64,000 bases of DNA, from contig CM082577.2 of assembly GCA_040954595.2 (NCBI GenBank), forward strand, positions 15,383,903-15,447,902. Direction: 5' to 3'. Below the pieces are notes generated by a model. It worked only from the letters and a program-made list of their open reading frames with translations, made no database searches and was not told the DNA's origin. Source of the stretch: Balanoglossus misakiensis (taxonomy: Eukaryota > Animalia > Hemichordata). The position numbers were made by a program, and so were the translations under genes. This document shows positions 1-42,271 of this stretch, piece after piece; the stretch's first letter is position 1; each line of letters starts with the position of its first letter.

Positions 1-2964
1 TTCATTCATGCGAGTGAGTGTAATTGCAAATTTGCCTATTCTAGATCTGTAATGGAAATGGAGAAAGTACCTTATATTTTCTGTAAAATAGACATTTAAT
101 TGGCAAGCCGTCCTGCATCAATTATGAATTGTGTACATGCACTAAAGCGCCCTCACTGCTGGGTGTGTTGTATGGTCTTTAACCCTGTTTCAAATTAGAG
201 TACTTTCTGCAATTTCAAGACAGATCTTACGTGCCATTGGAGAGCTCCATTGACTGGTCATTCATACTGTTTTCATTCATTCATTGCGGCATCAATATAT
301 TTTATCTATTCTAGCCAAAGAGCTTGGCACCTGTTGAAATGAACTCATCTGCTGTGGGCCAGTTTATTGGTGGCAGTTGAGCTGAGAAGAGCACCTTCCT
401 TCCCGGCACGCCACCAAGTAAAGTTCCACGCCGCCCACCACAGATGCCAGCATTCATTCATGCGAGTGAGTGTAATTGCAAATTTGCCTATTCTAGATCT
501 GTAATGGAAATGGAGAAAGTACCTTATATTTTCTGTAAAATAGACATTTAATTGGCAAGCCGTCCTGCATCAATTATGAATTGTGTACATGCACTAAAGC
601 GCCCTCACTGCTGGGTGTGTTGTATGGTCTTTAACCCTGTTTCAAATTAGAGTACTTTCTGCAATTTCAAGACAGATCTTACGTGCCATTGGAGAGCTCC
701 ATTGACTGGTCATTCATACTGTTTTCATTCATTCATTGCGGCATCAATATATTTTATCTATTCTAGCCAAAGAGCTTGGCACCTGTTGAAATGAACTCAT
801 CTGCTGTGGGCCAGTTTATTGGTGGCAGTTGAGCTGAGCAGAGCACCTTCCTTCCCGGCACGCCACCAAGTAAAGTTCCACGCCGCCCACCACAGATGCC
901 AGCATTCATTCATGCGAGTGAGTGTAATTGCAAATTTGCCTATTCTAGATCTGTAATGGAAATGGAGAAAGTACCTTATATTTTCTGTAAAATAGACATT
1001 TAATTGGCAAGCCGTCCTGCATCAATTATGAATTGTGTACATGCACTAAAGCGCCCTCACTGCTGGGTGTGTTGTATGGTCTTTAACCCTGTTTCAAATT
1101 AGAGTACTTTCTGCAATTTCAAGACAGATCTTACGTGCCATTGGAGAGCTCCATTGACTGGTCATTCATACTGTTTTCATTCATTCATTGCGGCATCAAT
1201 ATATTTTATCTATTCTAGCCAAAGAGCTTGGCACCTGTTGAAATGAACTCATCTGCTGTGGGCCAGTTTATTGGTGGCAGTTGAGCTGAGAAGAGCACCT
1301 TCCTTCCCGGCACGCCACCAAGTAAAGTTCCACGCCGCCCACCACAGATGCCAGCATTCATTCATGCGAGTGAGTGTAATTGCAAATTTGCCTATTCTAG
1401 ATCTGTAATGGAAATGGAGAAAGTACCTTATATTTTCTGTAAAATAGACATTTAATTGGCAAGCCGTCCTGCATCAATTATGAATTGTGTACATGCACTA
1501 AAGCGCCCTCACTGCTGGGTGTGTTGTATGGTCTTTAACCCTGTTTCAAATTAGAGTACTTTCTGCAATTTCAAGACAGATCTTACGTGCCATTGGAGAG
1601 CTCCATTGACTGGTCATTCATACTGTTTTCATTCATTCATTGCGGCATCAATATATTTTATCTATTCTAGCCAAAGAGCTTGGCACCTGTTGAAATGAAC
1701 TCATCTGCTGTGGGCCAGTTTATTGGTGGCAGTTGAGCTGAGCAGAGCACCTTCCTTCCCGGCACGCCACCAAGTAAAGTTCCACGCCGCCCACCACAGA
1801 TGCCAGCATTCATTCATGCGAGTGAGTGTAATTGCAAATTTGCCTATTCTAGATCTGTAATGGAAATGGAGAAAGTACCTTATATTTTCTGTAAAATAGA
1901 CATTTAATTGGCAAGCCGTCCTGCATCAATTATGAATTGTGTACATGCACTAAAGCGCCCTCACTGCTGGGTGTGTTGTATGGTCTTTAACCCTGTTTCA
2001 AATTAGAGTACTTTCTGCAATTTCAAGACAGATCTTACGTGCCATTGGAGAGCTCCATTGACTGGTCATTCATACTGTTTTCATTCATTCATTGCGGCAT
2101 CAATATATTTTATCTATTCTAGCCAAAGAGCTTGGCACCTGTTGAAATGAACTCATCTGCTGTGGGCCAGTTTATTGGTGGCAGTTGAGCTGAGAAGAGC
2201 ACCTTCCTTCCCGGCACGCCACCAAGTAAAGTTCCACGCCGCCCACCACAGATGCCAGCATTCATTCATGCGAGTGAGTGTAATTGCAAATTTGCCTATT
2301 CTAGATCTGTAATGGAAATGGAGAAAGTACCTTATATTTTCTGTAAAATAGACATTTAATTGGCAAGCCGTCCTGCATCAATTATGAATTGTGTACATGC
2401 ACTAAAGCGCCCTCACTGCTGGGTGTGTTGTATGGTCTTTAACCCTGTTTCAAATTAGAGTACTTTCTGCAATTTCAAGACAGATCTTACGTGCCATTGG
2501 AGAGCTCCATTGACTGGTCATTCATACTGTTTTCATTCATTCATTGCGGCATCAATATATTTTATCTATTCTAGCCAAAGAGCTTGGCACCTGTTGAAAT
2601 GAACTCATCTGCTGTGGGCCAGTTTATTGGTGGCAGTTGAGCTGAGCAGAGCACCTTCCTTCCCGGCACGCCACCAAGTAAAGTTCCACGCCGCCCACCA
2701 CAGATGCCAGCATTCATTCATGCGAGTGAGTGTAATTGCAAATTTGCCTATTCTAGAATCTTACGTGCCATTGGAGAGCTCCATTGACTGGTCATTCATA
2801 CTGTTTTCATTCATTCATTGCGGCATCAATATATTTTATCTATTCTAGCCAAAGAGCTTGGCACCTGTTGAAATGAACTCATCTGCTGTGGGCCAGTTTA
2901 TTGGTGGCAGTTGAGCTGAGGAGAGCACCTTCCTTCCCGGCACGCCACCAAGTAAAGTTCCACG
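1..2964 (+). repeat. Satellite array 1: 452-bp monomers (one 274-bp monomer near the end) with a 904-bp dimeric higher-order repeat
   Basis: Near-exact 452-bp periodicity. Private variant attatGaatt. Successive monomers alternate ctgagAagag / ctgagCagag. The array ends at agtaaagttccacg|tgcattcc (2964/2965). Confidence 0.97.
47..223. mobile_element. 177-bp MITE-like unit with 24-bp imperfect TIRs, present in every 452-bp monomer (representative copy)
   Basis: Left end ctgtaatggaaatggagaaagtac versus reverse complement of right end ctgtcttgaaattgcagaaagtac gives 19/24 identity. Flanked by AT on both sides within palindromic agatct, so a 2-, 4- or 6-bp TSD reading is formally possible. Absent from the short monomers. 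Confidence 0.8.
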
Positions 2965-4754
2965 TGCATTCCTGGCCCTGGTTTTATTTATGTTTACAGA
3001 CAATATTGCATTTTTGTACAAGTATTTTAATCAACTATAAATTTTGAATGTGTCATTTACCTGAACCGGTCATGTTGACCAGAATGATACATTTCTGCCT
3101 TCACTCACCCTATAAATATGTGATTGAGACATAGGTCATTTGCATAAGCTAACATACCAGAAAGTAAGCATATCTGTTGTTTTCCCTGTGTCACTGCCAT
3201 CAAAGTAAAAATTAGACGTTGTGTAGAGCAAACTCCAATTTTTTGTTCTCAATAAACATGGATGAATTACATAGAATGTGTTTGTTGTTTACAGTCTTTA
3301 AATGACACATTAGATTATGCACTTTACAAAACGTTTCTGAGAAACAAGTGACTAACTAGTTTCTTTCCACTGTGGCCAACGTGGTTCACTGTTTGTGTCA
3401 GAATCTCTCTGTTTTGCAAGGATTTTGAAATCATAGTGGTGACATGCATAGTGAAAATCAGCTACTTTCAAATGTCCGTCATGTTCATGCTGTAATTGAA
3501 TTTTCAAAGCTGGGCTGGCGTGTTTTTTCTTATTTACATAAGTATCACACTTTATACATGTATCTTCATGGGGTTTTCTGAGTCCCGTATTTAGGTCCTC
3601 TCTCACAATTTTACGAAATATCGTATAACTGACAGTTGTTCTTCCCAGAAGAGATTGGTTGGTTATGAACTCTCGGTGTAACTGCGATATACTGTGGTCC
3701 GGCGCCAGGTACGGTTTAAATCGAGGATTCCTGCAGTAGTGAGATTCTACAATTCTGTGCCTGCGTACGTGTTCAGTGATATCAGTCAGCAAATTTGGAT
3801 TGAGTTTCCGACGATGCCCTTTGTGTCGGCCCCTTGCATCTGGCATCAGACCAGTAAAGTTCCATGTGCATTCCTGGCCCTGGTTTTATTTATGTTTACA
3901 GACAATATTGCATTTTTGTACAAGTATTTTAATCAACTATAAATTTTGAATGTGTCATTTACCTGAACCGGTCATGTTGACCAGAATGATACATTTCTGC
4001 CTTCACTCACCCTATAAATATGTGATTGAGACATAGGTCATTTGCATAAGCTAACATACCAGAAAGTAAGCATATCTGATGTTTTCCCTGTGTCACTGCC
4101 ATCAAAGTAAAAATTAGACGTTGTGTAGAGCAAACTCCAATTTTTTGTTCTCAATAAACATGGATGAATTACATAGAATGTGTTTGTTGTTTACAGTCTT
4201 TAAATGACACATTAGATTATGCACTTTACAAAACGTTTCTGAGAAACAAGTGACTAACTAGTTTCTTTCCACTGTGGCCAACGTGGTTCACTGTTTGTGT
4301 CAGAATCTCTCTGTTTTGCAAGGATTTTGAAATCATAGTGGTGACATGCATAGTGAAAATCAGCTACTTTCAAATGTCCGTCATGTTCATGCTGTAATTG
4401 AATTTTCAAAGCTGGGCTGGCGTGTTTTTTCTTATTTACATAAGTATCACACTTTATACATGTATCTTCATGGGGTTTTCTGAGTCCCGTATTTAGGTCC
4501 TCTCTCACAATTTTACGAAATATCGTATAACTGACAGTTGTTCTTCCCAGAAGAGATTGGTTGGTTATGAACTCTCGGTGTAACTGCGATATACTGTGGT
4601 CCGGCGCCAGGTACGGTTTAAATCGAGGATTCCTGCAGTAGTGAGATTCTACAATTCTGTGCCTGCGTACGTGTTCAGTGATATCAGTCAGCAAATTTGG
4701 ATTGAGTTTCCGACGATGCCCTTTGTGTCGGCCCCTTGCATCTGGCATCAGACC
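2951..4754. repeat. 902-bp tandem duplication (2951-3852 / 3853-4754) of the 3' part and 3' UTR of the transposase N-half gene
   Basis: Near-identical units offset by 902 bp. Junction catcagacc|agtaaagttcc has AGT microhomology to the native catcagacc|agttgaac. Confidence 0.95.
3352..3846 (-). pseudogene. 5'-truncated duplicate (164 aa) of the transposase N-half gene
   Basis: Identical to the last 164 aa of the 4254-5216 ORF. Produced by the 902-bp duplication and retains an in-frame ATG (MPDARGRH). Confidence 0.85.
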
Positions 4755-5216
4755 AGTTGAACAGTGCATCATTTTGCTTAGAACGGTTCTAGTCCGCCTC
4801 TCACTAATGCCAAATAATTTCAGGAATGCATTTTTGCAGACAGTAACCGTTTCACCGCCTTCATTCACCAGGTGATAACGAACCGATTTCTTGTGTGACT
4901 TCATCTGTATATCCATCAGTTTGTAGAGCATCAAGTTCTGTTCATTATACACGCGACCATCAAAATATTTTCTCGTGGTGCCTAAAACATGCGTACTCCC
5001 AAGCTTCCGCAGACAATTCCCTTGAACGCAGGCGCATTCCAAGGAAAGACTGTCAATATCTGGAAAAGGGCGATTTTTCCTTGGTTTTTGTCTCGGACAC
5101 GTCTTTTTAGAATTCCTACGTGGCTTGTTGGCTCGAGCTGACAGTTCGGTTCTGCGTTGCTGCCACACAGGAAGGGGTTCCCACGCATAAGCAACTCCCC
5201 GGCAGGCCATGGTCAC
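4254..5216 (-). CDS. Sola1-like transposase, N-terminal Cys/His-rich DNA-binding half (320 aa)
   Basis: Motif series CxC...C, VCKNAFLKLFGIS, DARGRH, HVRRHRIVESHYCR...YL, SYTIFRKIV...N...KPHEDTCIKC, H..H. I recognise this as the region that normally precedes the catalytic core in Sola1-type (DUF7869-containing) transposases. AATAAA on the - strand at 3885-3890. Confidence 0.8.
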   Translation of the reverse strand: MTMACRGVAYAWEPLPVWQQRRTELSARANKPRRNSKKTCPRQKPRKNRPFPDIDSLSLECACVQGNCLRKLGSTHVLGTTRKYFDGRVYNEQNLMLYKLMDIQMKSHKKSVRYHLVNEGGETVTVCKNAFLKLFGISERRTRTVLSKMMHCSTGLMPDARGRHKGHRRKLNPNLLTDITEHVRRHRIVESHYCRNPRFKPYLAPDHSISQLHREFITNQSLLGRTTVSYTIFRKIVREDLNTGLRKPHEDTCIKCDTYVNKKKHASPALKIQLQHEHDGHLKVADFHYACHHYDFKILAKQRDSDTNSEPRWPQWKETS

Positions 5217-5257
5217 AGCTGAAGTATTTGTTCAAGTACTGACTGACTAAACGCGGC

Positions 5258-6391
5258 ATGGAACAAACGAACGAACGACTTCACGTTCGGAAAAAAAATC
5301 GTTGCGAGCTGTTGGGTGCATGCCTCTATAGTTGTCGGCAACCGTTCTTTTTTATTGCTAAACAATGCTGTCAGAGCATGGAAGGTGTGGTGGAAAACGA
5401 ACAGAGGTTTTGTACGACCAACGATTGGATGGTGCTACATATGGACTTCCACAAGTCATTGCCGGTTCCTAAACTCAGCTCTGAAGACTTTTACTTTAAA
5501 TCGAAATTGCAAATGAAGCTCCTTGGAATTTACAACGGGACAACGGAAAAGATGCATTGTTATGTATGGACAGAGCTCGATAGCAGAAAGTCTCCCGATG
5601 AAGTTATTACCTGTCTAAATCACTTTTTTTATAACTCGGGTGTGACCAGCAGACATGCAGTTATTTACAGCGACAACTGCCGTGCCGAATTCAAGTGTGG
5701 GAAGTTAATGTTTTACTATGACTATCTGTTACGAAAGGGCGTGTTTCGACGAATTGACTATAAAACTCTTGTGGCTGGACACACGTACTCCACCTGTGAC
5801 CGAGTTTTTGCGTCCATTGAAAGGCATGCAAGTCGTTTCCAGAGTATAGAGACACCTCACGATTGGACATCTGTGATTCGAGGATCTTCTCTGAATGGGA
5901 ACATTGGAGTTACGGAGATGACTCACAGAGACTTTTTCAATTATTCTGATTTCCTGAAAAATGAGTACGTTGTGCGTTATGCAGATACAAACAATGTAAC
6001 TTTTTACTACCAAGCCATGCACTATTTTAATTTTGGAGAAGGAGAAAGGCTTGATACCGACGGCAACCTCAGAACATTTAGTCATGCAGATAAAGTTTGG
6101 GTGAGAACATCTCTAGATCCAAGCGAGACCCCGATTGTAGTCGACTTTAGAAAGAAGAAGCAGAACCGGCGTTTACAAGATTGTACGCTGAACAAACTTT
6201 ATCAGGAACGTCGACCACTGGCGAGCAAAGTTTGGCGGGATCTTCAGAGTTTAGCCAAAAATTACCTGTCTCCGGAGGCAATAGAATTTTATAGGAATCT
6301 ACCGCTTCAGGAGAGTAGTGGCACCTCTGCAGACCCGTACGCCTTTCATGATGATGACGACGACGATGATGATGATATGGGCGGTGGTTGA
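5258..6391 (+). CDS. Sola1-like transposase, catalytic DDD/E (RNase H-fold) half; 377 aa, or 337 aa from ATG 5378
   Basis: Motifs MDFHKSLPVPKL..FYFKSKL, CYVWTE...KSPDEVITCL, IYSDNC, LVAGHTYSTCDRVFASIE, and C-terminal LY..RRPL..K.RDL. Three candidate catalytic Asp residues are intact. Acidic poly-D tail. Confidence 0.85.
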   Translation: MEQTNERLHVRKKNRCELLGACLYSCRQPFFFIAKQCCQSMEGVVENEQRFCTTNDWMVLHMDFHKSLPVPKLSSEDFYFKSKLQMKLLGIYNGTTEKMHCYVWTELDSRKSPDEVITCLNHFFYNSGVTSRHAVIYSDNCRAEFKCGKLMFYYDYLLRKGVFRRIDYKTLVAGHTYSTCDRVFASIERHASRFQSIETPHDWTSVIRGSSLNGNIGVTEMTHRDFFNYSDFLKNEYVVRYADTNNVTFYYQAMHYFNFGEGERLDTDGNLRTFSHADKVWVRTSLDPSETPIVVDFRKKKQNRRLQDCTLNKLYQERRPLASKVWRDLQSLAKNYLSPEAIEFYRNLPLQESSGTSADPYAFHDDDDDDDDDMGGG

Positions 6392-6552
6392 ACAAACTGT
6401 CCTTTTCATGACGACAGTGATTTTGGATATTTGATGTGCGTGCACAGTTTATATGTAATATTTTCACACGAACGAGTTTTGACTGAATTTGATTAAAGAA
6501 TGTACTCGATAATTAACAAATGTGCTGAATCGTGGTTATTATGTTGTTAATT

Positions 6553-6592
6553 TTTGTTTGTTTGTTTGTTTGTTTGTTTGTTTGTTTGTTTG
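6553..6592 (+). repeat. (TTTG)10 microsatellite
   Basis: Read directly. Also present at 38348-38387. Confidence 0.95.
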
Positions 6593-6789
6593 TAAACAAT
6601 TTCCGTTCATTCAACTGGCTACAAAGTTGGATTTTTGTACTGGGAAGCGATAAACTCGCACATCAAAACCGGGGAGACTCGATCATTTTTCCCTGCAGGT
6701 AGCCTGAAAAGCACCCGGGCAGAGATTACGTCATATATGGTCCACTTTAATACGAAATTATGCAAATGTGACATTTCACGGAAACGGCG

Positions 6790-6798
6790 TATATAAAA
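6790..6798 (+). promoter_or_regulatory. TATA box of the wHTH-SET gene
   Basis: TATATAAAA in a GC-flanked context about 100 bp upstream of ATG 6891. Confidence 0.6.
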
Positions 6799-6890
6799 GC
6801 GACCCTGGGCTATTGTTCGGAATGCGTCATCGACGAGAGAGTGACTGATAATTCTTCTACCTCGAGTCAACCATTCTGTATATACTGAAC

Positions 6891-8230
6891 ATGGCTAGCT
6901 GGCGCAGGAAGAGACAAGGCAATGTGCGGTCTGTAATCAACGAACGGCACCGCTCAGTTCAGTGTCCCTTTCTTCAAAAGTGGATCGGTGAGCAATTGGT
7001 ATTTTCAGGTCGTTCAGAGGATGAAGTCCAGTCCAGTACTGTATTTGAGAGCTACAAATGTTGGGTTGAAAACTATTCGTCGGCGGACAATCAAGTAATG
7101 ATTATGGTTACTAAAGCTCGATTTTTCAAGGTGAGAATGATCGCATTTTTCTTTCCCCCCCCCCCTCCCTCCCTCCCTCCCTCCCCCAAGGGACTCGTTT
7201 TCTGTCTCTTTTAAACCTGTAACTTAACGAAAAGGAAGTTTTTCACATATCTCTTCGTTGACACTATAGCAATTTGGAGCGCGGATGCTTCAAGAGAAGA
7301 GCGTTACCAAATCAAAGTCGGCCGGGGTTAATATTTATAGAGGTGTTCGTCTGAAAGCTGGTTCGCGAAGAATCTCAACGGGGAAACCTGAGCACAGTGT
7401 ACTTCAGACCAGGGCAAGGGCATTTCTTGATGACGCCAGCGTGACCGTTCCGATCGAGGTAAGAATGGTGTTTTGTTTGGACTAGGACAATAGAACGTTG
7501 CAATGAGTGTGTCAATGGGTGTCCAAGTGCAAACGTGGTCTGCTTCTGTCCACAAATGCCATTAATTTTTGGCAGGATTTATAAAATTGTCAATGAAGAA
7601 TACAAAAATGAAAAACAACAGTTAATAGCAAACTGGTAGGATTGCAAGGGCTTGTAAAACGGTACACACTGTACCAGGAAGTTTGCAACACTAATGAAGA
7701 ATGTATATGATATATTTAGGTGAGAACTGTTCGCGATCGCCGGGACGCAGGACGGTGCGCGTTTTCGACGAGGGATATTCAAGCCTGGGACGTCGTCTGC
7801 GAATACCGGGGCACGGTTATTAGCGTTGAAGAAGCTAGTCGGCGTGATGAGCTTTACAGGGCAGAGGGGAAACGACCACGCATGTTCCATCTCTACATTG
7901 GAAAGAGACACGTTGTGTGAGTGTATCACTTAGTCGAATATATGGTCATATATTGCAAAGCATCTGTCGAAATAGAAAACGTAATATTGTCTATATTTTC
8001 CTCATTAACGCAGCATTGACGGATACGATGTCCCAGCCGGTGAAGAAAATTTAGCAGGCCTAATAAATCACAGTCAGCAGAACGCCAACTTGGTACCGGT
8101 TCGGATCGGAGAGCGCCTGGTTTTCTTTGCAACCAGGAATCTTTGTCAGGGAGTAGAGCTTTTGTATGATTACGGTGACGGGGGTGAAGAGGATTTCTTC
8201 AGTGGTTCTCAAACTTTTCCTGAAAATTAA
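6891..8230 (+). CDS. Spliced gene, 280 aa: winged-helix-like N-terminal domain plus SETD8/PR-Set7-like lysine methyltransferase. Exons 6891-7130, 7270-7458, 7720-7916, 8014-8230
   Basis: Three GT-AG introns (aag|gtgaga..tatag, gag|gtaaga..tttag, gt|gtgagt..cgcag; phases 0, 0, 2) give an 843-nt open frame. SET motifs: GRCAFSTRDI..WDVVCEYRG, IDG, GLINHS, FATRNL..GVELLYDYGD. N-terminal region FLQKWIGEQL..VQSSTVFESYKCW..FFKQF..GVNIYRGVRLK resembles a D5-primase C-terminal or RFX-type winged helix. Confidence 0.88.
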
Positions 8231-9138
8231 GGCATTAACACATCAACGCTTCGGGGTGTCGTAACGGCGGCGCGGCGGGGGGGGGGGGGGGGGGACGTGA
8301 AAATGTTTGTATCAGGAACAAAATTCCCGTGCAAATCACCTTGATCCGGGTGGGTGGACTATTCGCGACAAATGTTGAAATCATACAAAGCATTTTACTT
8401 AATTAACCCATTTTTTTCATTTATTTGTTTACAGTTTACAACGTCATAGAGAAGTTGAACTAGAGACTGGATCAGCGTGGGTGACACCATAGTACACCAA
8501 TGTTTTCTTCAGTTTGATTCAATTGTAATTTAAAACTGAGATTGCCTAACGCTTTCCCAGATTTTTTTAACCACTGAGAAACTGTGGGTTTTTTTCTGGG
8601 TTTTGGTGCGAGGTGATCTCAGTCAGTGGTGTTAATTTAATTAATCATTTTCTTTTCCTATTTACGTCGACTGAAATGTATTTTGATAGGTGATAGTCAT
8701 ACCATAAAAAAAATCTTACGGCGCGACTGCCAAAATGTACATTTATTTGTCCGTTCCAAGTTATTTTGTGTATGTGTGATGGGTGCCGGTGACTGTGCAG
8801 GGTTGATTTCCCTAGAGCGACTGTTATATTCGTTTTCCAACGATGATGAATTTACATGTTATTTGCTTGGCATTTTGACGCAGAGACACTTCTGAAAACA
8901 CAAACCTATTAATTATGCCACGGGTGTAAATTGATCACATTAAAAGAGGCTTTAGACGTTTGCCGCGAGCTCCTGGTGGGCAGAATCTTGTCAGCCCAAA
9001 TTTGACTATAAGTACATAGCCAATGATGTGACGCTCTCCCACATCCTTCGCCGCGCCTTTTCGCTGATTTACAGCATCTTGCGTAAACACTGTCATTTGA
9101 TCTTGCTTGGCAGAAGTCAACTTGCTCTATACTACATT

Positions 9139-9504
9139 ATGGCGGCCAAGCTCAACTGCATATCAGATAATGCCAAGGAGCGTTTGAGAGGCATCCTCGC
9201 CAGAAGGAGTCGCGTTTCCGGTGACTGTGTGCTCTGGACGGGTGCAGCTTGTCGAAACGGCTATGGCTCTATTACGTTCAGAGATGAGAACACTCTAACC
9301 GCCTATGTCCATCACATTGCACTCCTAATTAACGGAGTGCAATTGGTGGGCAGGCGGTTAGAGTGTTCTCATCTTTGCAACGAAAAGCTATGCATCCGCC
9401 CAGAGCACATTGTCCAGGAAACGCGACTCCTAAACATTTCACGAAAGACGTGCTTTAAATCCCCAAAAGGGGAGTGTCACCACGATCCCAGGTGCCTAAG
9501 GTGA
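9139..9504 (+). CDS. His-Me finger endonuclease (zinc-binding loop of homing endonuclease / His-Cys box-like), 121 aa
   Basis: Motifs CVLWTG...GYG, YVHH, ECSHLCNEKLCIRPEHIVQE...N.SRKTC...C.H.PRC match the zf-His_Me_endon pattern. First ATG is at 9139 (attATGG). Confidence 0.85.
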   Translation: MAAKLNCISDNAKERLRGILARRSRVSGDCVLWTGAACRNGYGSITFRDENTLTAYVHHIALLINGVQLVGRRLECSHLCNEKLCIRPEHIVQETRLLNISRKTCFKSPKGECHHDPRCLR

Positions 9505-9789
9505 GTAATCCTCTTCTCATTTGATATGTATTGTGTGACCCTGCAGTTGAAACGCTTTCATCAATAATTTGCGGCGCGTGGGTAATCTCGGTGTTATTGA
9601 CAATGCAGCCGGCCCAAACATTTTTAAATTAACACTGTTTCTGACTGTATTAACGAAATGTCCAATTTGCAAGTAGCCTATAGACAACCCTTTTGAATGA
9701 GTTTTGTCTCGTTGAGATTTTATACATAAGGAACAATCTAGATTTATTTTAGAAGACACTGTTCTTTTAAAACAGCTAGCATAATACAG

Positions 9790-10156
9790 CTAAATTTCGG
9801 AATTTCCGGACAATTTTCGGAATTCCTTTTAAATTTGAGAAATTTTTCATCAGATATAAGTGTTACTATTTATTGGACATGTTTTTATCATTGTTTACTT
9901 TTTAAGGTCATTCTCACCCCCCCCCCCAAAAAAAGCCGCTTTAGGCTTCATGTTCAGTAAAAAATCTGGAAAGTTCAGCTGAATTTTACACTGATCACAC
10001 ATTTTTGGGAAGGTCTGGCGCAAAATAAAGGATGACAAATGTAAATCTAATGTCACATTTGTAAACCTCTAAGTATTGTACACTCATTCTATTAAGTATA
10101 TGCAAATAGTACGGATAATTTTTTCGGAATGTGGAATTCCGAAATTAGTTCGGAAC
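9790..10156. repeat. Clustered TTCGGAA motifs forming an imperfect inverted-repeat pair about 330 bp apart
   Basis: ctaaatttcggaatttcc and aattttcggaattcc (9790-9826) versus ggaattccgaaattag (10133-10148). Confidence 0.5.
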
Positions 10157-10480
10157 GTGTTAGCAGTGAAGAGATCACCACTGAGGGTTGGAAGGCCTTG
10201 CCAGAAATTAACGCGTAAAGTACGCCCTCACAGGCCATGTAAACAAGGTCAAATAAGGCCGTCTGGCAAACGAATGATTAATTCAACGCGCCATTTGAGC
10301 CGAGCTGAGTTGGTCTGAGTTGCGTATCACACAGACTTAGGCTGAATGTCAGTGGAGTAACCAGTCCGTTTTAGATTTACCAATGATGTGAATTTAATTT
10401 CTTCACCCAGAAAAACAGAACACAACTTGTCTGCAACATGATGCTGGAGGTGACACATGACAGAGAAGTGGATCCGCGTT

Positions 10481-10818
10481 GTCAACACAGATGCCAGCAT
10501 TCAAAAGGGGAGTGCCACCTGCTAAAATCAACTCATCTGCTGTTGGCCCATTTTACCTGTGGCAACTGTTCAGAGGAGACAACGTTTATTCCGTGCAAGC
10601 CAACACGCAATGTTGGGGTCTACCTGTCAACACAGATGCAAGCATTCATGTGAGTGAGTATCAGGACTGACCTTGTATTTGCTGAATAATTCATAATGCC
10701 TATTTTAGAATTCTTAGAGGCATTTGGAGTTCATTGCCTGGTCAACCAAACTACACCCCTTAACAGCTGAAACAAAATGCGTATTGTGTTCATTCATTCA
10801 TTGCATCAATATATATAG
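10481..10818 (+). repeat. Diverged copy of the short satellite monomer inside the cassette
   Basis: Collinear matches: cacctg.t.aaat.aactcatctgctgt.ggcc, cacagatgc.agcattcat, gagtgagt, gcctatt.tagaattctta, cattg.ctggtca, ttcattcattcattgcatcaatatat. Confidence 0.85.
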
Positions 10819-11121
10819 GCAACATGAGTATCAAGTAGCACTATTTGTTTACGATTGTATTCATGAAAACTTCCCACTAACAATTCCACAGTTAATATTG
10901 AACACATTTATCCAACAAGGTCAAAAGAAAAAGGGAATCTTCTGGTTCCAAAATACGCCACAAATGTGGGTCAACATACAGTGAAATATTATGGTGCTCA
11001 AATATGCAACATATCAAATCTGTCTCATCAAAGTCATGCTTTAAAAAAGAATTGAAAAGGTATTATTTATCCATTTGACTGCTGTATTTTCAGAAGGAAA
11101 ACAAACTGAATTTGGTTTTTC

Positions 11122-14100
11122 AAGTACCTTATATTTTCTGTAAAATAGACATTTAATTGGCAAGCCGTCCTGCATCAATTATTAATTGTGTACATGCACT
11201 AAAGCGCCCTCACTGCTGGGTGTGTTGTATGGTCTTTAACCCTGTTTCAAATTAGAGTACTTTCTGCAATTTCAAGACAGATCTTACGTGCCATTGGAGA
11301 GCTCCATTGACTGGTCATTCATACTGTTTTCATTCATTCATTGCGGCATCAATATATTTTATCTATTCTAGCCAAAGAGCTTGGCACCTGTTGAAATGAA
11401 CTCATCTGCTGTGGGCCAGTTTATTGGTGGCAGTTGAGCTGAGGAGAGCACCTTCCTTCCCGGCACGCCACCAAGTAAAGTTCCACGCCGCCCACCACAG
11501 ATGCCAGCATTCATTCATGCGAGTGAGTGTAATTGCAAATTTGCCTATTCTAGATCTGTAATGGAAATGGAGAAAGTACCTTATATTTTCTGTAAAATAG
11601 ACATTTAATTGGCAAGCCGTCCTGCATCAATTATTAATTGTGTACATGCACTAAAGCGCCCTCACTGCTGGGTGTGTTGTATGGTCTTTAACCCTGTTTC
11701 AAATTAGAGTACTTTCTGCAATTTCAAGACAGATCTTACGTGCCATTGGAGAGCTCCATTGACTGGTCATTCATACTGTTTTCATTCATTCATTGCGGCA
11801 TCAATATATTTTATCTATTCTAGCCAAAGAGCTTGGCACCTGTTGAAATGAACTCATCTGCTGTGGGCCAGTTTATTGGTGGCAGTTGAGCTGAGGAGAG
11901 CACCTTCCTTCCCGGCACGCCACCAAGTAAAGTTCCACGCCGCCCACCACAGATGCCAGCATTCATTCATGCGAGTGAGTGTAATTGCAAATTTGCCTAT
12001 TCTAGATCTGTAATGGAAATGGAGAAAGTACCTTATATTTTCTGTAAAATAGACATTTAATTGGCAAGCCGTCCTGCATCAATTATTAATTGTGTACATG
12101 CACTAAAGCGCCCTCACTGCTGGGTGTGTTGTATGGTCTTTAACCCTGTTTCAAATTAGAGTACTTTCTGCAATTTCAAGACAGATCTTACGTGCCATTG
12201 GAGAGCTCCATTGACTGGTCATTCATACTGTTTTCATTCATTCATTGCGGCATCAATATATTTTATCTATTCTAGCCAAAGAGCTTGGCACCTGTTGAAA
12301 TGAACTCATCTGCTGTGGGCCAGTTTATTGGTGGCAGTTGAGCTGAGGAGAGCACCTTCCTTCCCGGCACGCCACCAAGTAAAGTTCCACGCCGCCCACC
12401 ACAGATGCCAGCATTCATTCATGCGAGTGAGTGTAATTGCAAATTTGCCTATTCTAGATCTGTAATGGAAATGGAGAAAGTACCTTATATTTTCTGTAAA
12501 ATAGACATTTAATTGGCAAGCCGTCCTGCATCAATTATTAATTGTGTACATGCACTAAAGCGCCCTCACTGCTGGGTGTGTTGTATGGTCTTTAACCCTG
12601 TTTCAAATTAGAGTACTTTCTGCAATTTCAAGACAGATCTTACGTGCCATTGGAGAGCTCCATTGACTGGTCATTCATACTGTTTTCATTCATTCATTGC
12701 GGCATCAATATATTTTATCTATTCTAGCCAAAGAGCTTGGCACCTGTTGAAATGAACTCATCTGCTGTGGGCCAGTTTATTGGTGGCAGTTGAGCTGAGG
12801 AGAGCACCTTCTTTCCCGGCACGCCACCAAGTAAAGTTCCACGCCGCCCACCACAGATGCCAGCATTCATTCATGCGAGTGAGTGTAATTGCAAATTTGC
12901 CTATTCTAGATCTGTAATGGAAATGGAGAAAGTACCTTATATTTTCTGTAAAATAGACATTTAATTGGCAAGCCGTCCTGCATCAATTATTAATTGTGTA
13001 CATGCACTAAAGCGCCCTCACTGCTGGGTGTGTTGTATGGTCTTTAACCCTGTTTCAAATTAGAGTACTTTCTGCAATTTCAAGACAGATCTTACGTGCC
13101 ATTGGAGAGCTCCATTGACTGGTCATTCATACTGTTTTCATTCATTCATTGCGGCATCAATATATTTTATCTATTCTAGCCAAAGAGCTTGGCACCTGTT
13201 GAAATGAACTCATCTGCTGTGGGCCAGTTTATTGGTGGCAGTTGAGCTGAGGAGAGCACCTTCCTTCCCGGCACGCCACCAAGTAAAGTTCCACGCCGCC
13301 CACCACAGATGCCAGCATTCATTCATGCGAGTGAGTGTAATTGCAAATTTGCCTATTCTAGATCTGTAATGGAAATGGAGAAAGTACCTTATATTTTCTG
13401 TAAAATAGACATTTAATTGGCAAGCCGTCCTGCATCAATTATTAATTGTGTACATGCACTAAAGCGCCCTCACTGCTGGGTGTGTTGTATGGTCTTTAAC
13501 CCTGTTTCAAATTAGAGTACTTTCTGCAATTTCAAGACAGATCTTACGTGCCATTGGAGAGCTCCATTGACTGGTCATTCATACTGTTTTCATTCATTCA
13601 TTGCGGCATCAATATATTTTATCTATTCTAGCCAAAGAGCTTGGCACCTGTTGAAATGAACTCATCTGCTGTGGGCCAGTTTATTGGTGGCAGTTGAGCT
13701 GAGGAGAGCACCTTCCTTCCCGGCACGCCACCAAGTAAAGTTCCACGCCGCCCACCACAGATGCCAGCATTCATTCATGCGAGTGAGTGTAATTGCAAAT
13801 TTGCCTATTCTAGAATTCTTACGTGCCATTGGAGAGCTCCATTGACTGGTCATTCATACTGTTTTCATTCATTCATTGCGGCATCAATATATTTTATCTA
13901 TTCTAGCCAAAGAGCTTGGCACCTGTTGAAATGAACTCATCTGCTGTGGGCCAGTTTATTGGTGGCAGTTGAGCTGAGGAGAGCACCTTCCTTCCCGGCA
14001 CGCCACCAAGTAAAGTTCCACGCCGCCCACCACAGATGCCAGCATTCATTCATGCGAGTGAGTGTAATTGCAAATTTGCCTATTCTAGATCTGTAATGGA

Positions 14101-34759: not shown

Positions 34760-36549
34760 TGCATTCCTGGCCCTGGTTTTATTTATGTTTACAGACAATA
34801 TTGCATTTTTGTACAAGTATTTTAATCAACTATAAATTTTGAATGTGTCATTTACCTGAACCGGTCATGTTGACCAGAATGATACATTTCTGCCTTCACT
34901 CACCCTATAAATATGTGATTGAGACATAGGTCATTTGCATAAGCTAACATACCAGAAAGTAAGCATATCTGTTGTTTTCCCTGTGTCACTGCCATCAAAG
35001 TAAAAATTAGACGTTGTGTAGAGCAAACTCCAATTTTTTGTTCTCAATAAACATGGATGAATTACATAGAATGTGTTTGTTGTTTACAGTCTTTAAATGA
35101 CACATTAGATTATGCACTTTACAAAACGTTTCTGAGAAACAAGTGACTAACTAGTTTCTTTCCACTGTGGCCAACGTGGTTCACTGTTTGTGTCAGAATC
35201 TCTCTGTTTTGCAAGGATTTTGAAATCATAGTGGTGACATGCATAGTGAAAATCAGCTACTTTCAAATGTCCGTCATGTTCATGCTGTAATTGAATTTTC
35301 AAAGCTGGGCTGGCGTGTTTTTTCTTATTTACATAAGTATCACACTTTATACATGTATCTTCATGGGGTTTTTTGAGTCCCGTATTTAGGTCCTCTCTCA
35401 CAATTTTACGAAATATCGTATAACTGACAGTTGTTCTTCCCAGAAGAGATTGGTTGGTTATGAACTCTCGGTGTAACTGCGATATACTGTGGGCCGGCGC
35501 CAGGTACGGTTTAAATCGAGGATTCCTGCAGTAGTGAGATTCTACAATTCTGTGCCTGCGTACGTGTTCAGTGATATCAGTCAGCAAATTTGGATTGAGT
35601 TTCCGACGATGCCCTTTGTGTCGGCCCCTTGCATCTGGCATCAGACCAGTAAAGTTCCATGTGCATTCCTGGCCCTGGTTTTATTTATGTTTACAGACAA
35701 TATTGCATTTTTGTACAAGTATTTTAATCAACTATAAATTTTGAATGTGTCATTTACCTGAACCGGTCATGTTGACCAGAATGATACATTTCTGCCTTCA
35801 CTCACCCTATAAATATGTGATTGAGACATAGGTCATTTGCATAAGCTAACATACCAGAAAGTAAGCATATCTGATGTTTTCCCTGTGTCACTGCCATCAA
35901 AGTAAAAATTAGACGTTGTGTAGAGCAAACTCCAATTTTTTGTTCTCAATAAACATGGATGAATTACATAGAATGTGTTTGTTGTTTACAGTCTTTAAAT
36001 GACACATTAGATTATGCACTTTACAAAACGTTTCTGAGAAACAAGTGACTAACTAGTTTCTTTCCACTGTGGCCAACGTGGTTCACTGTTTGTGTCAGAA
36101 TCTCTCTGTTTTGCAAGGATTTTGAAATCATAGTGGTGACATGCATAGTGAAAATCAGCTACTTTCAAATGTCCGTCATGTTCATGCTGTAATTGAATTT
36201 TCAAAGCTGGGCTGGCGTGTTTTTTCTTATTTACATAAGTATCACACTTTATACATGTATCTTCATGGGGTTTTCTGAGTCCCGTATTTAGGTCCTCTCT
36301 CACAATTTTACGAAATATCGTATAACTGACAGTTGTTCTTCCCAGAAGAGATTGGTTGGTTATGAACTCTCGGTGTAACTGCGATATACTGTGGTCCGGT
36401 GCCAGGTACGGTTTAAATCGAGGATTCCTGCAGTAGTGAGATTCTACAATTCTGTGCCTGCGTACGTGTTCAGTGATATCAGTCAGCAAATTTGGATTGA
36501 GTTTCCGACGATGCCCTTTGTGTCGGCCCCTTGCATCTGGCATCAGACC
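34746..36549. repeat. 902-bp tandem duplication, copy 2
   Basis: Same as 2951-4754, offset 31,795. Confidence 0.95.
35147..35641 (-). pseudogene. 5'-truncated duplicate of the transposase N-half gene, copy 2
   Basis: 164 aa with two substitutions (APAH, LKKP) relative to copy 1. Confidence 0.85.
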
Positions 36550-37011
36550 AGTTGAACAGTGCATCATTTTGCTTAGAACGGTTCTAGTCCGCCTCTCACT
36601 AATGCCAAATAATTTCAGGAATGCATTTTTGCAGACAGTAACCGTTTCACCGCCTTCATTCACCAGGTGATAACGAACCGATTTCTTGTGTGACTTCATC
36701 TGCATATCCATCAGTTTGTAGAGCATCAAGTTCTGTTCATTATACACGCGACCATCAAAATATTTTCTCGTGGTGCCTAAAACATGCGTACTCCCAAGCT
36801 TCCGCATACAATTCCCTTGAACGCAGGCGCATTCCAAGGAAAGACTGTCAATATCTGGAAAAGGGCGATTTTTCCTTGGTTTTTGTCTCGGACACGTCTT
36901 TTTAGAATTCCTACGTGGCTTGTTGGCTCGAGCTGACAGTTCGGTTCTGCGTTGCTGCCACACAGGAATGGGTTCCCACGCATAAGCAACTCCCCGGCAG
37001 GCCATGGTCAC
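36049..37011 (-). CDS. Sola1-like transposase N-terminal half, copy 2 (320 aa)
   Basis: Intact. Three conservative changes relative to copy 1 (L>I, L>M, I>M). Confidence 0.8.
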   Translation of the reverse strand: MTMACRGVAYAWEPIPVWQQRRTELSARANKPRRNSKKTCPRQKPRKNRPFPDIDSLSLECACVQGNCMRKLGSTHVLGTTRKYFDGRVYNEQNLMLYKLMDMQMKSHKKSVRYHLVNEGGETVTVCKNAFLKLFGISERRTRTVLSKMMHCSTGLMPDARGRHKGHRRKLNPNLLTDITEHVRRHRIVESHYCRNPRFKPYLAPDHSISQLHREFITNQSLLGRTTVSYTIFRKIVREDLNTGLRKPHEDTCIKCDTYVNKKKHASPALKIQLQHEHDGHLKVADFHYACHHYDFKILAKQRDSDTNSEPRWPQWKETS

Positions 37012-37052
37012 AGCTGAAGTATTTGTTCAAGTACTGACTGACTAAACGCGGC

Positions 37053-38186
37053 ATGGAACAAACGAACGAACGACTTCACGTTCGGAAAAAAAATCGTTGC
37101 GAGCTGTTGGGTGCATGCCTCTATAGTTGTCGGCAACCGTTCTTTTTTATTGCTAAACAATGCTGTCAGAGCATGGAAGGTGTGGTGGAAAACGAACAGA
37201 GGTTTTGTACGACCAACGATTGGATGGTGCTACATATGGACTTCCACAAGTCATTGCCGGTTCCTAAACTCAGCTCTGAAGACTTTTACTTTAAATCGAA
37301 ATTGCAAATGAAGCTCCTTGGAATTTACAACGGGACAACGGAAAAGATGCATTGTTATGTATGGACAGAGCTCGATAGCAGAAAGTCTCCCGATGAAGTT
37401 ATTACCTGTCTAAATCACTTTTTTTATAACTCGGGTGTGACCAGCAGACATGCAGTTATTTACAGCGACAACTGCCGTGCCGAATTCAAGTGTGGGAAGT
37501 TAATGTTTTACTATGACTATCTGTTACGAAAGGGCGTGTTTCGACGAATTGACTATAAAACTCTTGTGGCTGGACACACGTACTCCACCTGTGACCGAGT
37601 TTTTGCGTCCATTGAAAGGCATGCAAGTCGTTTCCAGAGTATAGAGACACCTCACGATTGGACATCTGTGATTCGAGGATCTTCTCTGAATGGGAACATT
37701 GGAGTTACGGAGATGACTCACAGAGACTTTTTCAATTATTCTGATTTCCTGAAAAATGAGTACGTTGTGCGTTATGCAGATACAAACAATGTAACTTTTT
37801 ACTACCAAGCCATGCACTATTTTAATTTTGGAGAAGGAGAAAGGCTTGATACCGACGGCAACCTCAGAACATTTAGTCATGCAGATAAAGTTTGGGTGAG
37901 AACATCTCTAGATCCAAGCGAGACCCCGATTGTAGTCGACTTTAGAAAGAAGAAGCAGAACCGGCGTTTACAAGATTGTACGCTGAACAAACTTTATCAG
38001 GAACGTCGACCACTGGCGAGCAAAGTTTGGCGGGATCTTCAGAGTTTAGCCAAAAATTACCTGTCTCCGGAGGCAATAGAATTTTATAGGAATCTACCGC
38101 TTCAGGAGAGTAGTGGCACCTCTGCAGACCCGTACGCCTTTCATGATGATGACGACGACGATGATGATGATATGGGCGGTGGTTGA
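37053..38186 (+). CDS. Sola1-like transposase catalytic half, copy 2
   Basis: Protein identical to copy 1. Confidence 0.85.
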   Translation: MEQTNERLHVRKKNRCELLGACLYSCRQPFFFIAKQCCQSMEGVVENEQRFCTTNDWMVLHMDFHKSLPVPKLSSEDFYFKSKLQMKLLGIYNGTTEKMHCYVWTELDSRKSPDEVITCLNHFFYNSGVTSRHAVIYSDNCRAEFKCGKLMFYYDYLLRKGVFRRIDYKTLVAGHTYSTCDRVFASIERHASRFQSIETPHDWTSVIRGSSLNGNIGVTEMTHRDFFNYSDFLKNEYVVRYADTNNVTFYYQAMHYFNFGEGERLDTDGNLRTFSHADKVWVRTSLDPSETPIVVDFRKKKQNRRLQDCTLNKLYQERRPLASKVWRDLQSLAKNYLSPEAIEFYRNLPLQESSGTSADPYAFHDDDDDDDDDMGGG

Positions 38187-38584
38187 ATAAACTGTCCTTT
38201 TCATGACGACAGTGATTTTGGATATTTGATGTGCGTGCACAGTTTATATGTAATATTTTCACACGAACGAGTTTTGACTGAATTTGATTAAAGAATGTAC
38301 TCGATAATTAACAAATGTGCTGAATCGTGGTTATTATGTTGTTAATTTTTGTTTGTTTGTTTGTTTGTTTGTTTGTTTGTTTGTTTGTAAACAATTTCCG
38401 TTCATTCAACTGGCTACAAAGTTGGATTTTTGTACTGGGAAGCGATAAACTCGCACATCAAAACCGGGGAGACTCGATCATTTTTCCCTGCAGGTAGCCT
38501 GAAAAGCACCCGGGCAGAGATTACGTCATATATGGTCCACTTTAATACGAAATTATGCAAATGTGACATTTCACGGAAACGGCG

Positions 38585-38593
38585 TATATAAAA
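38585..38593 (+). promoter_or_regulatory. TATA box, copy 2
   Basis: TATATAAAA upstream of ATG 38686. Confidence 0.6.
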
Positions 38594-38685
38594 GCGACCC
38601 TGGGCTATTGTTCGGAATGCGTCATCGACGAGAGAGTGACTGATAATTCTTCTACCTCGAGTCAACCATTCTGTATATACTGAAC

Positions 38686-40023
38686 ATGGCTAGCTGGCGC
38701 AGGAAGAGACAAGGCAATGTGCGGTCTGTAATCAACGAACGGCACCGCTCAGTTCAGTGTCCCTTTCTTCAAAAGTGGATCGGTGAGCAATTGGTATTTT
38801 CAGGTCGTTCAGAGGATGAAGTCCAGTCCAGTACTGTATTTGAGAGCTACAAATGTTGGGTTGAAAACTATTCGTCGGCGGACAATCAAGTAATGATTAT
38901 GGTTACTAAAGCTCGATTTTTCAAGGTGAGAATGATCGCATTTTTCTTTCCCCCCCCCCCCCTCCCTCCCTCCCTCCCCCAAGGGACTCGTTTTCTGTCT
39001 CTTTTAAACCTGTAACTTAACGAAAAGGAAGTTTTTCACATATCTCTTCGTTGACACTATAGCAATTTGGAGCGCGGATGCTTCAAGAGAAGAGCGTTAC
39101 CAAATCAAAGTCGGCCGGGGTTAATATTTATAGAGGTGTTCGTCTGAAAGCTGGTTCGCGAAGAATCTCAACGGGGAAACCTGAGCACAGTGTACTTCAG
39201 ACCAGGGCAAGGGCATTTCTTGATGACGCCAGCGTGACCGTTCCGATCGAGGTAAGAATGGTGTTTTGTTTGGACTAGGACAATAGAACGTTGCAATGAG
39301 TGTGTCAATGGGTGTCCAAGTGCAAACGTGGTCTGCTTCTGTCCACAAATGCCATTAATTTTTGGCAGGATTTATAAAATTGTCAATGAAGAATACAAAA
39401 ATGAAAAACAACAGTTAATAGCAAACTGGTAGGATTGCAAGGGCTTGTAAAACGGTACACACTGTACCAGGAAGTTTGCAACACTAATGAAGAATGTATA
39501 TGATATATTTAGGTGAGAACTGTTCGCGATCGCCGGGACGCAGGACGGTGCGCGTTTTCGACGAGGGATATTCAAGCCTGGGACGTCGTCTGCGAATACC
39601 GGGGCACGGTTATTAGCGTTGAAGAAGCTAGTCGGCGTGATGAGCTTTACAGGGCAGAGGGGAAACGACCACGCATGTTCCATCTCTACATTGGAAAGAG
39701 ACACGTTGTGTGAGTGTATCACTTAGTCGAATATATGGTCATATATTGCAAAGCATCTGTCGAAATAGAAAACGTAATATTGTCTATATTTTCCTCATTA
39801 ACGCAGCATTGACGGATACGATGTCCCAGCCGGTGAAGAAAATTTAGCAGGCCTAATAAATCACAGTCAGCAGAACGCCAACTTGGTACCGGTTCGGATC
39901 GGAGAGCGCCTGGTTTTCTTTGCAACCAGGAATCTTTGTCAGGGAGTAGAGCTTTTGTATGATTACGGTGACGGGGGTGAAGAGGATTTCTTCAGTGGTT
40001 CTCAAACTTTTCCTGAAAATTAA
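38686..40023 (+). CDS. wHTH-SETD8-like methyltransferase, copy 2. Exons 38686-38925, 39063-39251, 39513-39709, 39807-40023
   Basis: Same splice sites and frame as copy 1. The only length difference (2 bp) falls in the C-rich tract of intron 1, as expected if the intron call is right. Confidence 0.88.
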
Positions 40024-40926
40024 GGCATTAACACATCAACGCTTCGGGGTGTCGTAACGGCGGCGCGGCGGGGGGGGGGGGGACGTGAAAATGTTTGTAT
40101 CAGGAACAAAATTCCCGTGCAAATCACCTTGATCCGGGTGGGTGGACTATTCGCGACAAATGTTGAAATCATACAAAGCATTTTACTTAATTAACCCATT
40201 TTTTTCATTTATTTGTTTACAGTTTACAACGTCATAGAGAAGTTGAACTAGAGACTGGATCAGCGTGGGTGACACCATAGTACACCAATGTTTTCTTCAG
40301 TTTGATTCAATTGTAATTTAAAACTGAGATTGCCTAACGCTTTCCCAGATTTTTTTAACCACTGAGAAACTGTGGGTTTTTTTCTGGGTTTTGGTGCGAG
40401 GTGATCTCAGTCAGTGGTGTTAATTTAATTAATCATTTTCTTTTCCTATTTACGTCGACTGAAATGTATTTTGATAGGTGATAGTCATACCATAAAAAAA
40501 ATCTTACGGCGCGACTGCCAAAATGTACATTTATTTGTCCGTTCCAAGTTATTTTGTGTATGTGTGATGGGTGCCGGTGACTGTGCAGGGTTGATTTCCC
40601 TAGAGCGACTGTTATATTCGTTTTCCAACGATGATGAATTTACATGTTATTTGCTTGGCATTTTGACGCAGAGACACTTCTGAAAACACAAACCTATTAA
40701 TTATGCCACGGGTGTAAATTGATCACATTAAAAGAGGCTTTAGACGTTTGCCGCGAGCTCCTGGTGGGCAGAATCTTGTCAGCCCAAATTTGACTATAAG
40801 TACATAGCCAATGATGTGACGCTCTCCCACATCCTTCGCCGCGCCTTTTCGCTGATTTACAGCATCTTGCGTAAACACTGTCATTTGATCTTGCTTGGCA
40901 GAAGTCAACTTGCTCTATACTACATT

Positions 40927-41292
40927 ATGGCGGCCAAGCTCAACTGCATATCAGATAATGCCAAGGAGCGTTTGAGAGGCATCCTCGCCAGAAGGAGTCG
41001 CGTTTCCGGTGACTGTGTGCTCTGGACGGGTGCAGCTTGTCGAAACGGCTATGGCTCTATTACGTTCAGAGATGAGAACACTCTAACCGCCTATGTCCAT
41101 CACATTGCACTCCTAATTAACGGAGTGCAATTGGTGGGCAGGCGGTTAGAGTGTTCTCATCTTTGCAACGAAAAGCTATGCATCCGCCCAGAGCACATTG
41201 TCCAGGAAACGCGACTCCTAAACATTTCACGAAAGACGTGCTTTAAATCCCCAAAAGGGGAGTGTCACCACGATCCCAGGTGCCTAAGGTGA
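40927..41292 (+). CDS. His-Me finger endonuclease, copy 2
   Basis: Protein identical to copy 1. Confidence 0.85.
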   Translation: MAAKLNCISDNAKERLRGILARRSRVSGDCVLWTGAACRNGYGSITFRDENTLTAYVHHIALLINGVQLVGRRLECSHLCNEKLCIRPEHIVQETRLLNISRKTCFKSPKGECHHDPRCLR

Positions 41293-42271
41293 GTAATCCT
41301 CTTCTCATTTGATATGTATTGTGTGACCCTGCAGTTGAAACGCTTTCATCAATAATTTGCGGCGCGTGGGTAATCTCGGTGTTATTGACAATGCAGCCGG
41401 CCCAAACATTTTTAAATTAACACTGTTTCTGACTGTATTAACGAAATGTCCAATTTGCAAGTAGCCTATAGACAACCCTTTTGAATGAGTTTTGTCTCGT
41501 TGAGATTTTATACATAAGGAACAATCTAGATTTATTTTAGAAGACACTGTTCTTTTAAAACAGCTAGCATAATACAGCTAAATTTCGGAATTTCCGGACA
41601 ATTTTCGGAATTCCTTTTAAATTTGAGAAATTTTTCATCAGATATAAGTGTTACTATTTATTGGACATGTTTTTATCATTGTTTACTTTTTAAGGTCATT
41701 CTCACCCCCCCCCCCCCCAAAAAAAGCCGCTTTAGGCTTCATGTTCAGTAAAAAATCTGGAAAGTTCAGCTGAATTTTACACTGATCACACATTTTTGGG
41801 AAGGTCTGGCGCAAAATAAAGGATGACAAATGTAAATCTAATGTCACATTTGTAAACCTCTAAGTATTGTACACTCATTCTATTAAGTATATGCAAATAG
41901 TACGGATAATTTTTTCGGAATGTGGAATTCCGAAATTAGTTCGGAACGTGTTAGCAGTGAAGAGATCACCACTGAGGGTTGGAAGGCCTTGCCAGAAATT
42001 AACGCGTAAAGTACGCCCTCACAGGCCATGTAAACAAGGTCAAATAAGGCCGTCTGGCAAACGAATGATTAATTCAACGCGCCATTTGAGCCGAGCTGAG
42101 TTGGTCTGAGTTGCGTATCACACAGACTTAGGCTGAATGTCAGTGGAGTAACCAGTCCGTTTTAGATTTACCAATGATGTGAATTTAATTTCTTCACCCA
42201 GAAAAACAGAACACAACTTGTCTGCAACATGATGCTGGAGGTGACACATGACAGAGAAGTGGATCCGCGTT

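Follow-up and report, generated by a model that had tools for sequence, protein, structure and literature searches.

We analyzed a window of 64,000 nucleotides from the hemichordate Balanoglossus misakiensis (assembly GCA_040954595.2, contig CM082577.2, positions 15,383,903 to 15,447,902), a satellite array in which an 8.3-kb cassette is inserted from 2965 and recurs from 34760, at an offset of 31,795 bp. In both cassette copies, four open genes are packed into 5.25 kb (4254-9504 in the first): open reading frame (ORF) A, the N-terminal half of a transposase; ORF B, its catalytic half; a SET-domain gene; and a His-Cys-box nuclease gene. Our main finding is that the division of this transposase between two genes very probably marks a conserved lineage, as judged from the sequences of its relatives. 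An earlier sequence-only reading of this DNA had described four intact genes in about 5.3 kb, present twice in the array, and the ORFs and exons are indeed open in two copies 31,795 bp apart. The identities that it had proposed (DDD-type transposase halves, a SET domain, and a nuclease now placed in the His-Cys-box group) are borne out by Pfam, a structure model, and alignments.

ORF B (5378-6391, plus strand; 337 aa, or 377 aa from the first ATG at 5258) matches DUF7869 (Pfam E 1.3e-14). Its structure model (predicted local distance difference test [pLDDT] score, 91.5) has an RNase-H core like those of integrases and mariner transposases, lacks an insertion domain, and aligns with the simian immunodeficiency virus (SIV) intasome (Z 10.3, root-mean-square deviation 2.8, 129 residues aligned) and with Mos1 (Z 9.1). 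D23, D99, and D141 form a triad in which D99 and D141 are separated by 42 residues, and 90% or more of 110 aligned rows retain D99, G134, H135, and D141. According to the model, then, ORF B has the RNase H fold and acidic triad expected of DDE/D transposases, and the earlier view that the enzyme is not Kolobok-like agrees with its DUF7869 match, D-D-D triad, and missing insertion domain. No PDB sequence matched the ORF B family, and a Foldseek search, which the sequence-only reading had recommended, returned nothing at E 0.001 or better. Translation of ORF B probably begins at 5378, because the relatives start there and because a 4-bp deletion variant at 5317 breaks the frame only when it is read from the first ATG; this variant makes up about one-third of the contig depth there in run X1 of a Logan sample (two runs, X1 and X2), which may itself be the source of the window.

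ORF A (4254-5210, minus strand; 318 aa) carries the motifs H-Y, DTCxxC, and H...A and likely binds DNA; phmmer aligns it with the N-terminal half of single-chain relatives (E 6e-24 to 1e-13). It stops just short of the first catalytic strand and has a short tail of its own, with the same end point in two related loci described below (L001 and L003). The two genes lie head-to-head, and the spacer between them (5211..5377) is likely to act as a bidirectional promoter. Programmed inversion rejoining A and B was considered and rejected, as only one 9-bp inverted word is shared between the regions and the relatives have true starts and stops.

The first three ORF B homologues, one of them named from Saccoglossus kowalevskii, are all 306-313 aa long and start where ORF B does (3/3). 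A profile search gave 7,804 matches at E 0.001, of which 150 were listed; of 152 rows, 130 covered enough of the profile, and a quick-method tree was built from the 60 best-scoring of these 130. In that tree, the clade containing ORF B (SH-like approximate likelihood ratio test [SH-aLRT] support, 99) consists entirely of stand-alone halves (14 of 14 rows), one of which is named from Nematostella vectensis. Another 14 short rows are scattered outside the clade (13 lie with fused proteins); these 14 probably represent fragments. In a branch beside the split clade, two rows (P0012 and P0031) appear by eye to have the catalytic half fused to a PHD-like finger in place of the usual N-terminal half.

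A metagenome scan yielded 46 pattern hits, which were reduced to three loci (L001 to L003). L003 (1379-10633) contains intact spliced A (minus strand) and B (plus strand) genes in a head-to-head arrangement, with about 950 bp between them and an identity of 32-37%. At L001 (1-1614) the genes are in tandem and in the same frame, with A followed by two stops and the ATG of B 42 bp on; this is possibly a dicistronic or re-initiating transcript and an intermediate of the split. L002 comprises ORF B with just 200 bp of upstream sequence. L001 falls in the Saccoglossus sub-branch, which is close to the window sequence, whereas L003 belongs to another sub-branch; the split is therefore old, and the gene orientation has changed at least once. 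A one-off inversion accident as the origin of the split is ruled out by L003 and L001. The split seen in the sequence-only reading is therefore real, and it is also conserved, both in the 14-row clade and at these two loci. Mobility within the ORF B clade is suggested by six intact halves of 319 aa that differ from one another at only 1-10 positions and lie on separate long ENA contigs, from one or more genomes. A word-index search, which is an insensitive method, found no ORF A homologue among 304 candidates.

Binding of A to B is supported by a complex model, which scored 0.67 against 0.00 for the best of three controls, with at least 56% of contacts agreeing between runs and a partner pLDDT of at least 61. 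Among microbial pairs, 51 of 78 solved complexes reach the mark applied to such models, as do 2 of 108 mismatched pairs; for eukaryotic pairs, the figures are 39 of 65 solved and 2 of 126 unrelated. In the model, the last helix of ORF A (279-300) lies on the ORF B sheet and on an insertion specific to the clade. Halves of split genes tend to pass this test, which tempers the result; the model therefore supports, rather than shows, binding.

The cassette as a whole is not an assembly artifact, because the Logan contigs reproduce the block, spanning it in long pieces with 0-2 differences each, although the window may derive from this very sample. The two window copies differ by seven substitutions and three indels, which fall in homopolymer or microsatellite tracts (a SET intron and runs outside coding exons). 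In run X1, contig depth was about 700-1,000 over the genes and about 58,000 over the satellite edge; depth is not copy number, but we take it to mean that the cassette is repeated well beyond the window, at a ratio roughly comparable to the 63 monomer starts counted between the two window copies. The cassette contigs are deep and nearly invariant, and joints at GATC sites in run X2 were handled as likely library artifacts. Runs X3 and X4, with a second organism label, contain identical satellite and cassette scraps (2800-11300) at very low depth; these likely represent carry-over and were not used.

The explanation that we favor, with roughly even confidence, is that the block is the core of a cargo-carrying split-transposase element whose own ends are lost or hidden and which is now amplified via the higher-order repeat of the array. 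The dense packing of four intact genes supports it. The same packing and intactness sit poorly with a passive chance nest, in which an A/B pair (mobile or domesticated), an unrelated SET/His-Me module of another element or a virus, a miniature inverted-repeat transposable element (MITE), and filler happened to adjoin the seed sequence of the satellite and were swept up by array expansion, with a hairpin in the nuclease gene arising from template switching and being tolerated. We regard this alternative as a real possibility, though somewhat doubtful. Several observations nonetheless weigh against the cargo-carrying element, and some of them speak directly for a nest. (i) No SET or His-Me gene was found downstream of ORF B at L001 to L003, where the sequence covered extends 522, 1,018, and 3,163 bp past the stop; in the window, the SET gene begins 500 bp past the ORF B stop. 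This counts against an old four-gene unit, and of the co-occurrence at other loci envisaged in the sequence-only reading, only the A/B pairing is seen (at L003 and L001). (ii) L003, a candidate with introns of 2.3 and 4 kb and no convincing terminal inverted repeats (TIRs), looks like a domesticated two-gene transposase. (iii) The Logan entries listed include diverged copies of SET and His-Me, one of which links SET exon 4 to sequence at 8672, whereas for the A/B region they include just the alleles distinguishing the two window copies; the SET/His-Me module may therefore have its own history. (iv) One SET variant, at 8021, would give a stop if taken alone. (v) A diverged satellite monomer and a dispersed MITE-like repeat lie inside the block. 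(vi) No element ends were found, as set out below.

The sequence-only reading had proposed a TIR-bounded composite transposon moving as a unit (2965..11280) and ending in a TIR shared with a unit found in the long monomers. That unit, here called M, is 177 bp long, lies inside every 452-bp monomer, and has imperfect TIRs (CTGT...ACAG, 19/24 matching) with AT on both sides; the complete M nearest to the left of cassette copy 1 is at 2307..2483 (plus strand). The match at 11280 is genuine, but it belongs to a 5'-truncated M (11122..11280, plus strand), at which the regular array restarts, and it is without a left counterpart. A scan of 2900-11400 with the M TIRs, allowing up to seven mismatches, found this match only; the left cassette edge has no inverted partner (best 18/31), and no cassette target site duplication (TSD) was found. 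The right "TIR" is also separated from the genes by the dispersed repeat, the diverged monomer, and other filler. With no left TIR and the right one in a truncated M, a TIR-bounded element is not demonstrated here; no TSD-flanked copy was found at another site, in a search that did not extend to a whole genome, and both window copies of the cassette are explained by array duplication.

M itself shows signs of movement. Among 49 M-less junctions of short monomers (for example, 2751..2770, plus strand), 38 read AAT, six AATT, and five ATT, and none reads plain AT or ATAT. We infer that these are excision-like footprints of M, although AATT could be the ancestral state, since the diverged old monomer has AATT too. 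Such products are expected from flank-hairpin excision (the Ac/Ds model), which is typical of insertion-domain transposases, e.g., hAT and CACTA. M-bearing and M-less monomers share single-nucleotide polymorphism states, which indicates repeated excision or conversion, and M also occurs after an (AT)n run elsewhere in the Logan sample. M is thus likely a mobile MITE; nothing links it to the ORF A/B transposase. Palindromic junctions in the 452-bp monomer were no better than 18 bp with two mismatched pairs.

These features invite comparison with a composite of the KolobokP type, in which an internal segment would have M units as its terminal repeats, A and B would recognize the ends of M, and non-autonomous units would make up the array as a multimer. 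Copy 2 has a complete M in the monomer directly to its left (about 34376-34552; cassette copy 34760..43071) and an M without its inner end on its right, but any insert in this array would be flanked by Ms, and copy 1 of the cassette has no adjoining left M. No M-like sequence was found near L001 to L003. The apparent repeated excision of M and its (AT)n context elsewhere would fit such a composite, but the footprints fit insertion-domain enzymes, and ORF B has no such domain. Although KolobokP forms multimers of this kind and shows excision of its long terminal direct repeats (LTDRs), as described in the text of PMC9587614, we consider the composite improbable here.

The SET gene has four exons on the plus strand (6891-7130, 7270-7458, 7720-7916, and 8014-8230), separated by GT-AG introns of 139, 261, and 97 bp, and encodes 280 aa without an internal stop, including the motifs LINHS and ELLYDYG. 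The sequence-only reading had assigned it to SETD8/PR-Set7, the writer of H4K20me1, a specificity that is putative here. The SET domain holds, and exon 4 is nearest to SET8-type chains (E 3e-4 to 2e-3, weak), but exon 3 is nearest to KMT2C (E 1e-4), followed by SETD8 (E 5e-3), these matches also being weak. Exon 1 matches Pox-D5 winged-helix clusters (atlas score, 0.97; Pox_D5 on 27% of the first cluster). Pfam makes no Pox_D5 call on the N-terminus of the protein, which is likely a Pox-D5-type winged helix. Diverged exon-4 copies in the same sample have at least 13 variant sites, of which, among those listed, 10 are third-position and 8 synonymous.

The nuclease ORF (9139-9504, plus strand; 121 aa; PF05551, E 2e-13) aligns with I-PpoI (E 0.002), such that S77, H78, H90, E94, and N99 correspond to S97, H98, H110, E114, and N119 of I-PpoI, which are residues in the catalytic and zinc-binding list for I-PpoI-type nucleases in the text of PMC9587614. 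Variants in the sample are R>K, V>I, L>Q, K>R, and D>E plus one silent change; together with the mostly third-position or synonymous SET variants, they suggest that the cargo is under selection. The word-index search, insensitive here as well, found no homologue of the His-Me protein among four candidates.

Codons 23-98 of the nuclease ORF (9205..9431, plus strand) form a near-perfect fold-back, for which 99 pairs are predicted, including 6 that belong to a side stem and 7 that are G-U. The RNA has a predicted energy of -191.6 kcal/mol, whereas shuffled sequences give -109.8 (z -14.7), and the z values are -16.5 for DNA and -13.6 against 300 synonymous resamplings, while none of the other 300-nt windows over 3851-11650 (26 windows) falls below z -3.2. 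Independent Logan contigs confirm the letters of the fold-back, and Rfam gave no match at E 1 or better over 2700-11800. From the sequence, conserved residues pair codon to codon (W33-P88 and V31-H90), the register shifts several times, and 43 of the 99 pairs join codon positions 1 and 2. Arms that keep conserved motifs through register shifts in this way are unlike a plain inverted duplication, and this speaks against the origin by template switching that a passive nest would imply. A hairpin intrinsic to the nuclease family is ruled out for distant relatives, with three of four phage HNH genes, those that were folded, giving z values of 0.46, -1.34, and -0.90.

The winged helix and the nuclease also raise the question of a viral origin, since the atlas neighbors of the SET N-terminus are D5-like domains of bacteria and viruses, and phage HNH families match the nuclease. 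The block would then derive from a transposase-carrying element, either a large DNA virus that became endogenous or a Polinton-like element, and be a fragment of it, with SET, the D5-type winged helix, and the HNH-type nuclease as viral accessory genes. However, it contains no capsid, polymerase, or packaging gene, its SET gene has spliceosomal introns, and nothing related to ORF B, the His-Me protein, or SET exon 4 emerged from four pattern-limited scans of viral contigs. We therefore consider a viral fragment very unlikely. A scan of prokaryotic genomes was also without relatives.

Returning to the cargo-carrying split-transposase element, its working could be envisaged as follows. A and B would be transcribed divergently off the bidirectional promoter, and the transposase would be rebuilt in trans as the last helix of A docks on the RNase-H sheet of B. 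The winged helix may tether the SET domain to DNA for local lysine methylation of chromatin, and the nuclease may cut in or near the array, the breaks favoring unequal crossover. The fold-back in the nuclease mRNA could throttle a toxic product, whether through Dicer, ADAR, or slowed translation, and spread would now likely proceed by array expansion rather than by cut-and-paste of the block. The fullest version of this scheme, which we think unlikely although worth stating, is a new kind of selfish satellite-dwelling system whose components travel together as a single lineage in marine invertebrates: a transposase of two subunits, a histone methyltransferase tethered to DNA and setting the chromatin of the array, and an array-expanding homing-type nuclease held in check by a hairpin that lies in its own catalytic codons and produces small interfering RNA.

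If SET and the nuclease do act on the array, the satellite would encode its own expansion and chromatin machinery. The split DDD lineage, found across distant animals and in two orientations, offers a natural setting in which to test the origin and domestication of two-component recombinases, and the split suggests a transposase with a potentially exchangeable targeting part. A nuclease ORF doubling as a duplex of about 100 bp is a striking case of double coding, which makes RNA-level self-limitation of a selfish nuclease testable. This fold-back, the D5-like winged helix, the excision-like footprints, and a 902-bp duplication are all new beside the sequence-only reading.

The duplication is a 99.8% tandem repeat (2951..4757; copies 2951-3855 and 3853-4757) that includes the 3' part of ORF A and the satellite junction; its first copy amounts to a headless ORF A fragment. 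The left cassette edge (2965-2986, also 3867-3897) coincides with a CA 18 nt past the AATAAA of ORF A, i.e., the satellite junction falls at the likely end of the A transcript. Right of the genes lie the dispersed MITE-like repeat (9793..10162; inverted arms 9804-9826 and 10133-10155), whose two ends, 9793 and 10162, are loose in the Logan contigs; the diverged M-less satellite monomer (10497..10813, plus strand; about 70%), with AATT at the M site; and, at 10820-11090, what by eye resembles the decayed 3' end of the reverse transcriptase ORF of a CR1/L2-type long interspersed nuclear element. The array has monomers of 452, 274, 275, and 265 bp arranged in higher-order blocks; at 11496-34759 and 43287-64000, the monomer types are ordered in a nested pattern, with higher-order units of about 6.5-7.2 kb recurring inside each 31.8-kb period.

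Among known systems, the nearest relatives of the enzyme are single-chain DUF7869 transposases of 500-800 aa, whose N- and C-terminal halves are matched by A and B, respectively. These relatives are unsplit; here there are two genes with cargo genes, and neither TIRs nor an AWWT TSD was found. The ORF B clade also has an extra NFGxGE-containing insertion, and ORF A has a short added tail. On motif resemblance, we presume that the single-chain family is Sola1. Elements of the latter have TIRs with a 4-bp AWWT TSD, as given in the text of PMC3845634, while the Sola2 motifs in supplement S10 of PMC3627910 (DFxEN...SDG...FFATSHGK) differ by eye from those of ORF B. In proposed working, the closest system is KolobokP, as described in the text of PMC9587614: nuclease-driven unequal crossover has been proposed for it, and the nuclease studied here has the catalytic and zinc residues named there. 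In contrast to KolobokP, the transposase here belongs to the DUF7869 type, lacks an insertion domain, and is divided between two genes, and there is an additional winged-helix-SET gene. The KolobokP repeats also differ, with LTDRs of about 450 or 660 bp, RR...YY ends, and a TTAA-type TSD compared with a 177-bp unit with CTGT ends and AT flanks, and the main text of that paper contains neither "hairpin" nor "SET." A mobile element with a SET ORF is described in the text of PMC4067079, namely proto-Helentron, and Helentron-type elements contain tandem repeats; here, however, no Rep/helicase ORF was found among the 14 window ORFs of at least 100 aa, and the SET gene is spliced and fused to the likely D5-type winged helix. 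A literature search, with Repbase, Dfam, subscription journals, and the original Sola paper outside its scope, found no account of DUF7869, the split, the gene set, or the hairpin. Transposon machinery that is divided over two genes and acts as a complex is familiar from PIF/Harbinger, with its nuclease and Myb protein, and from ProtoRAG, with RAG1L and RAG2L. In those systems, the partners are separate protein families, whereas the two proteins described here correspond to the two parts of a single chain, of which there are many unsplit relatives.

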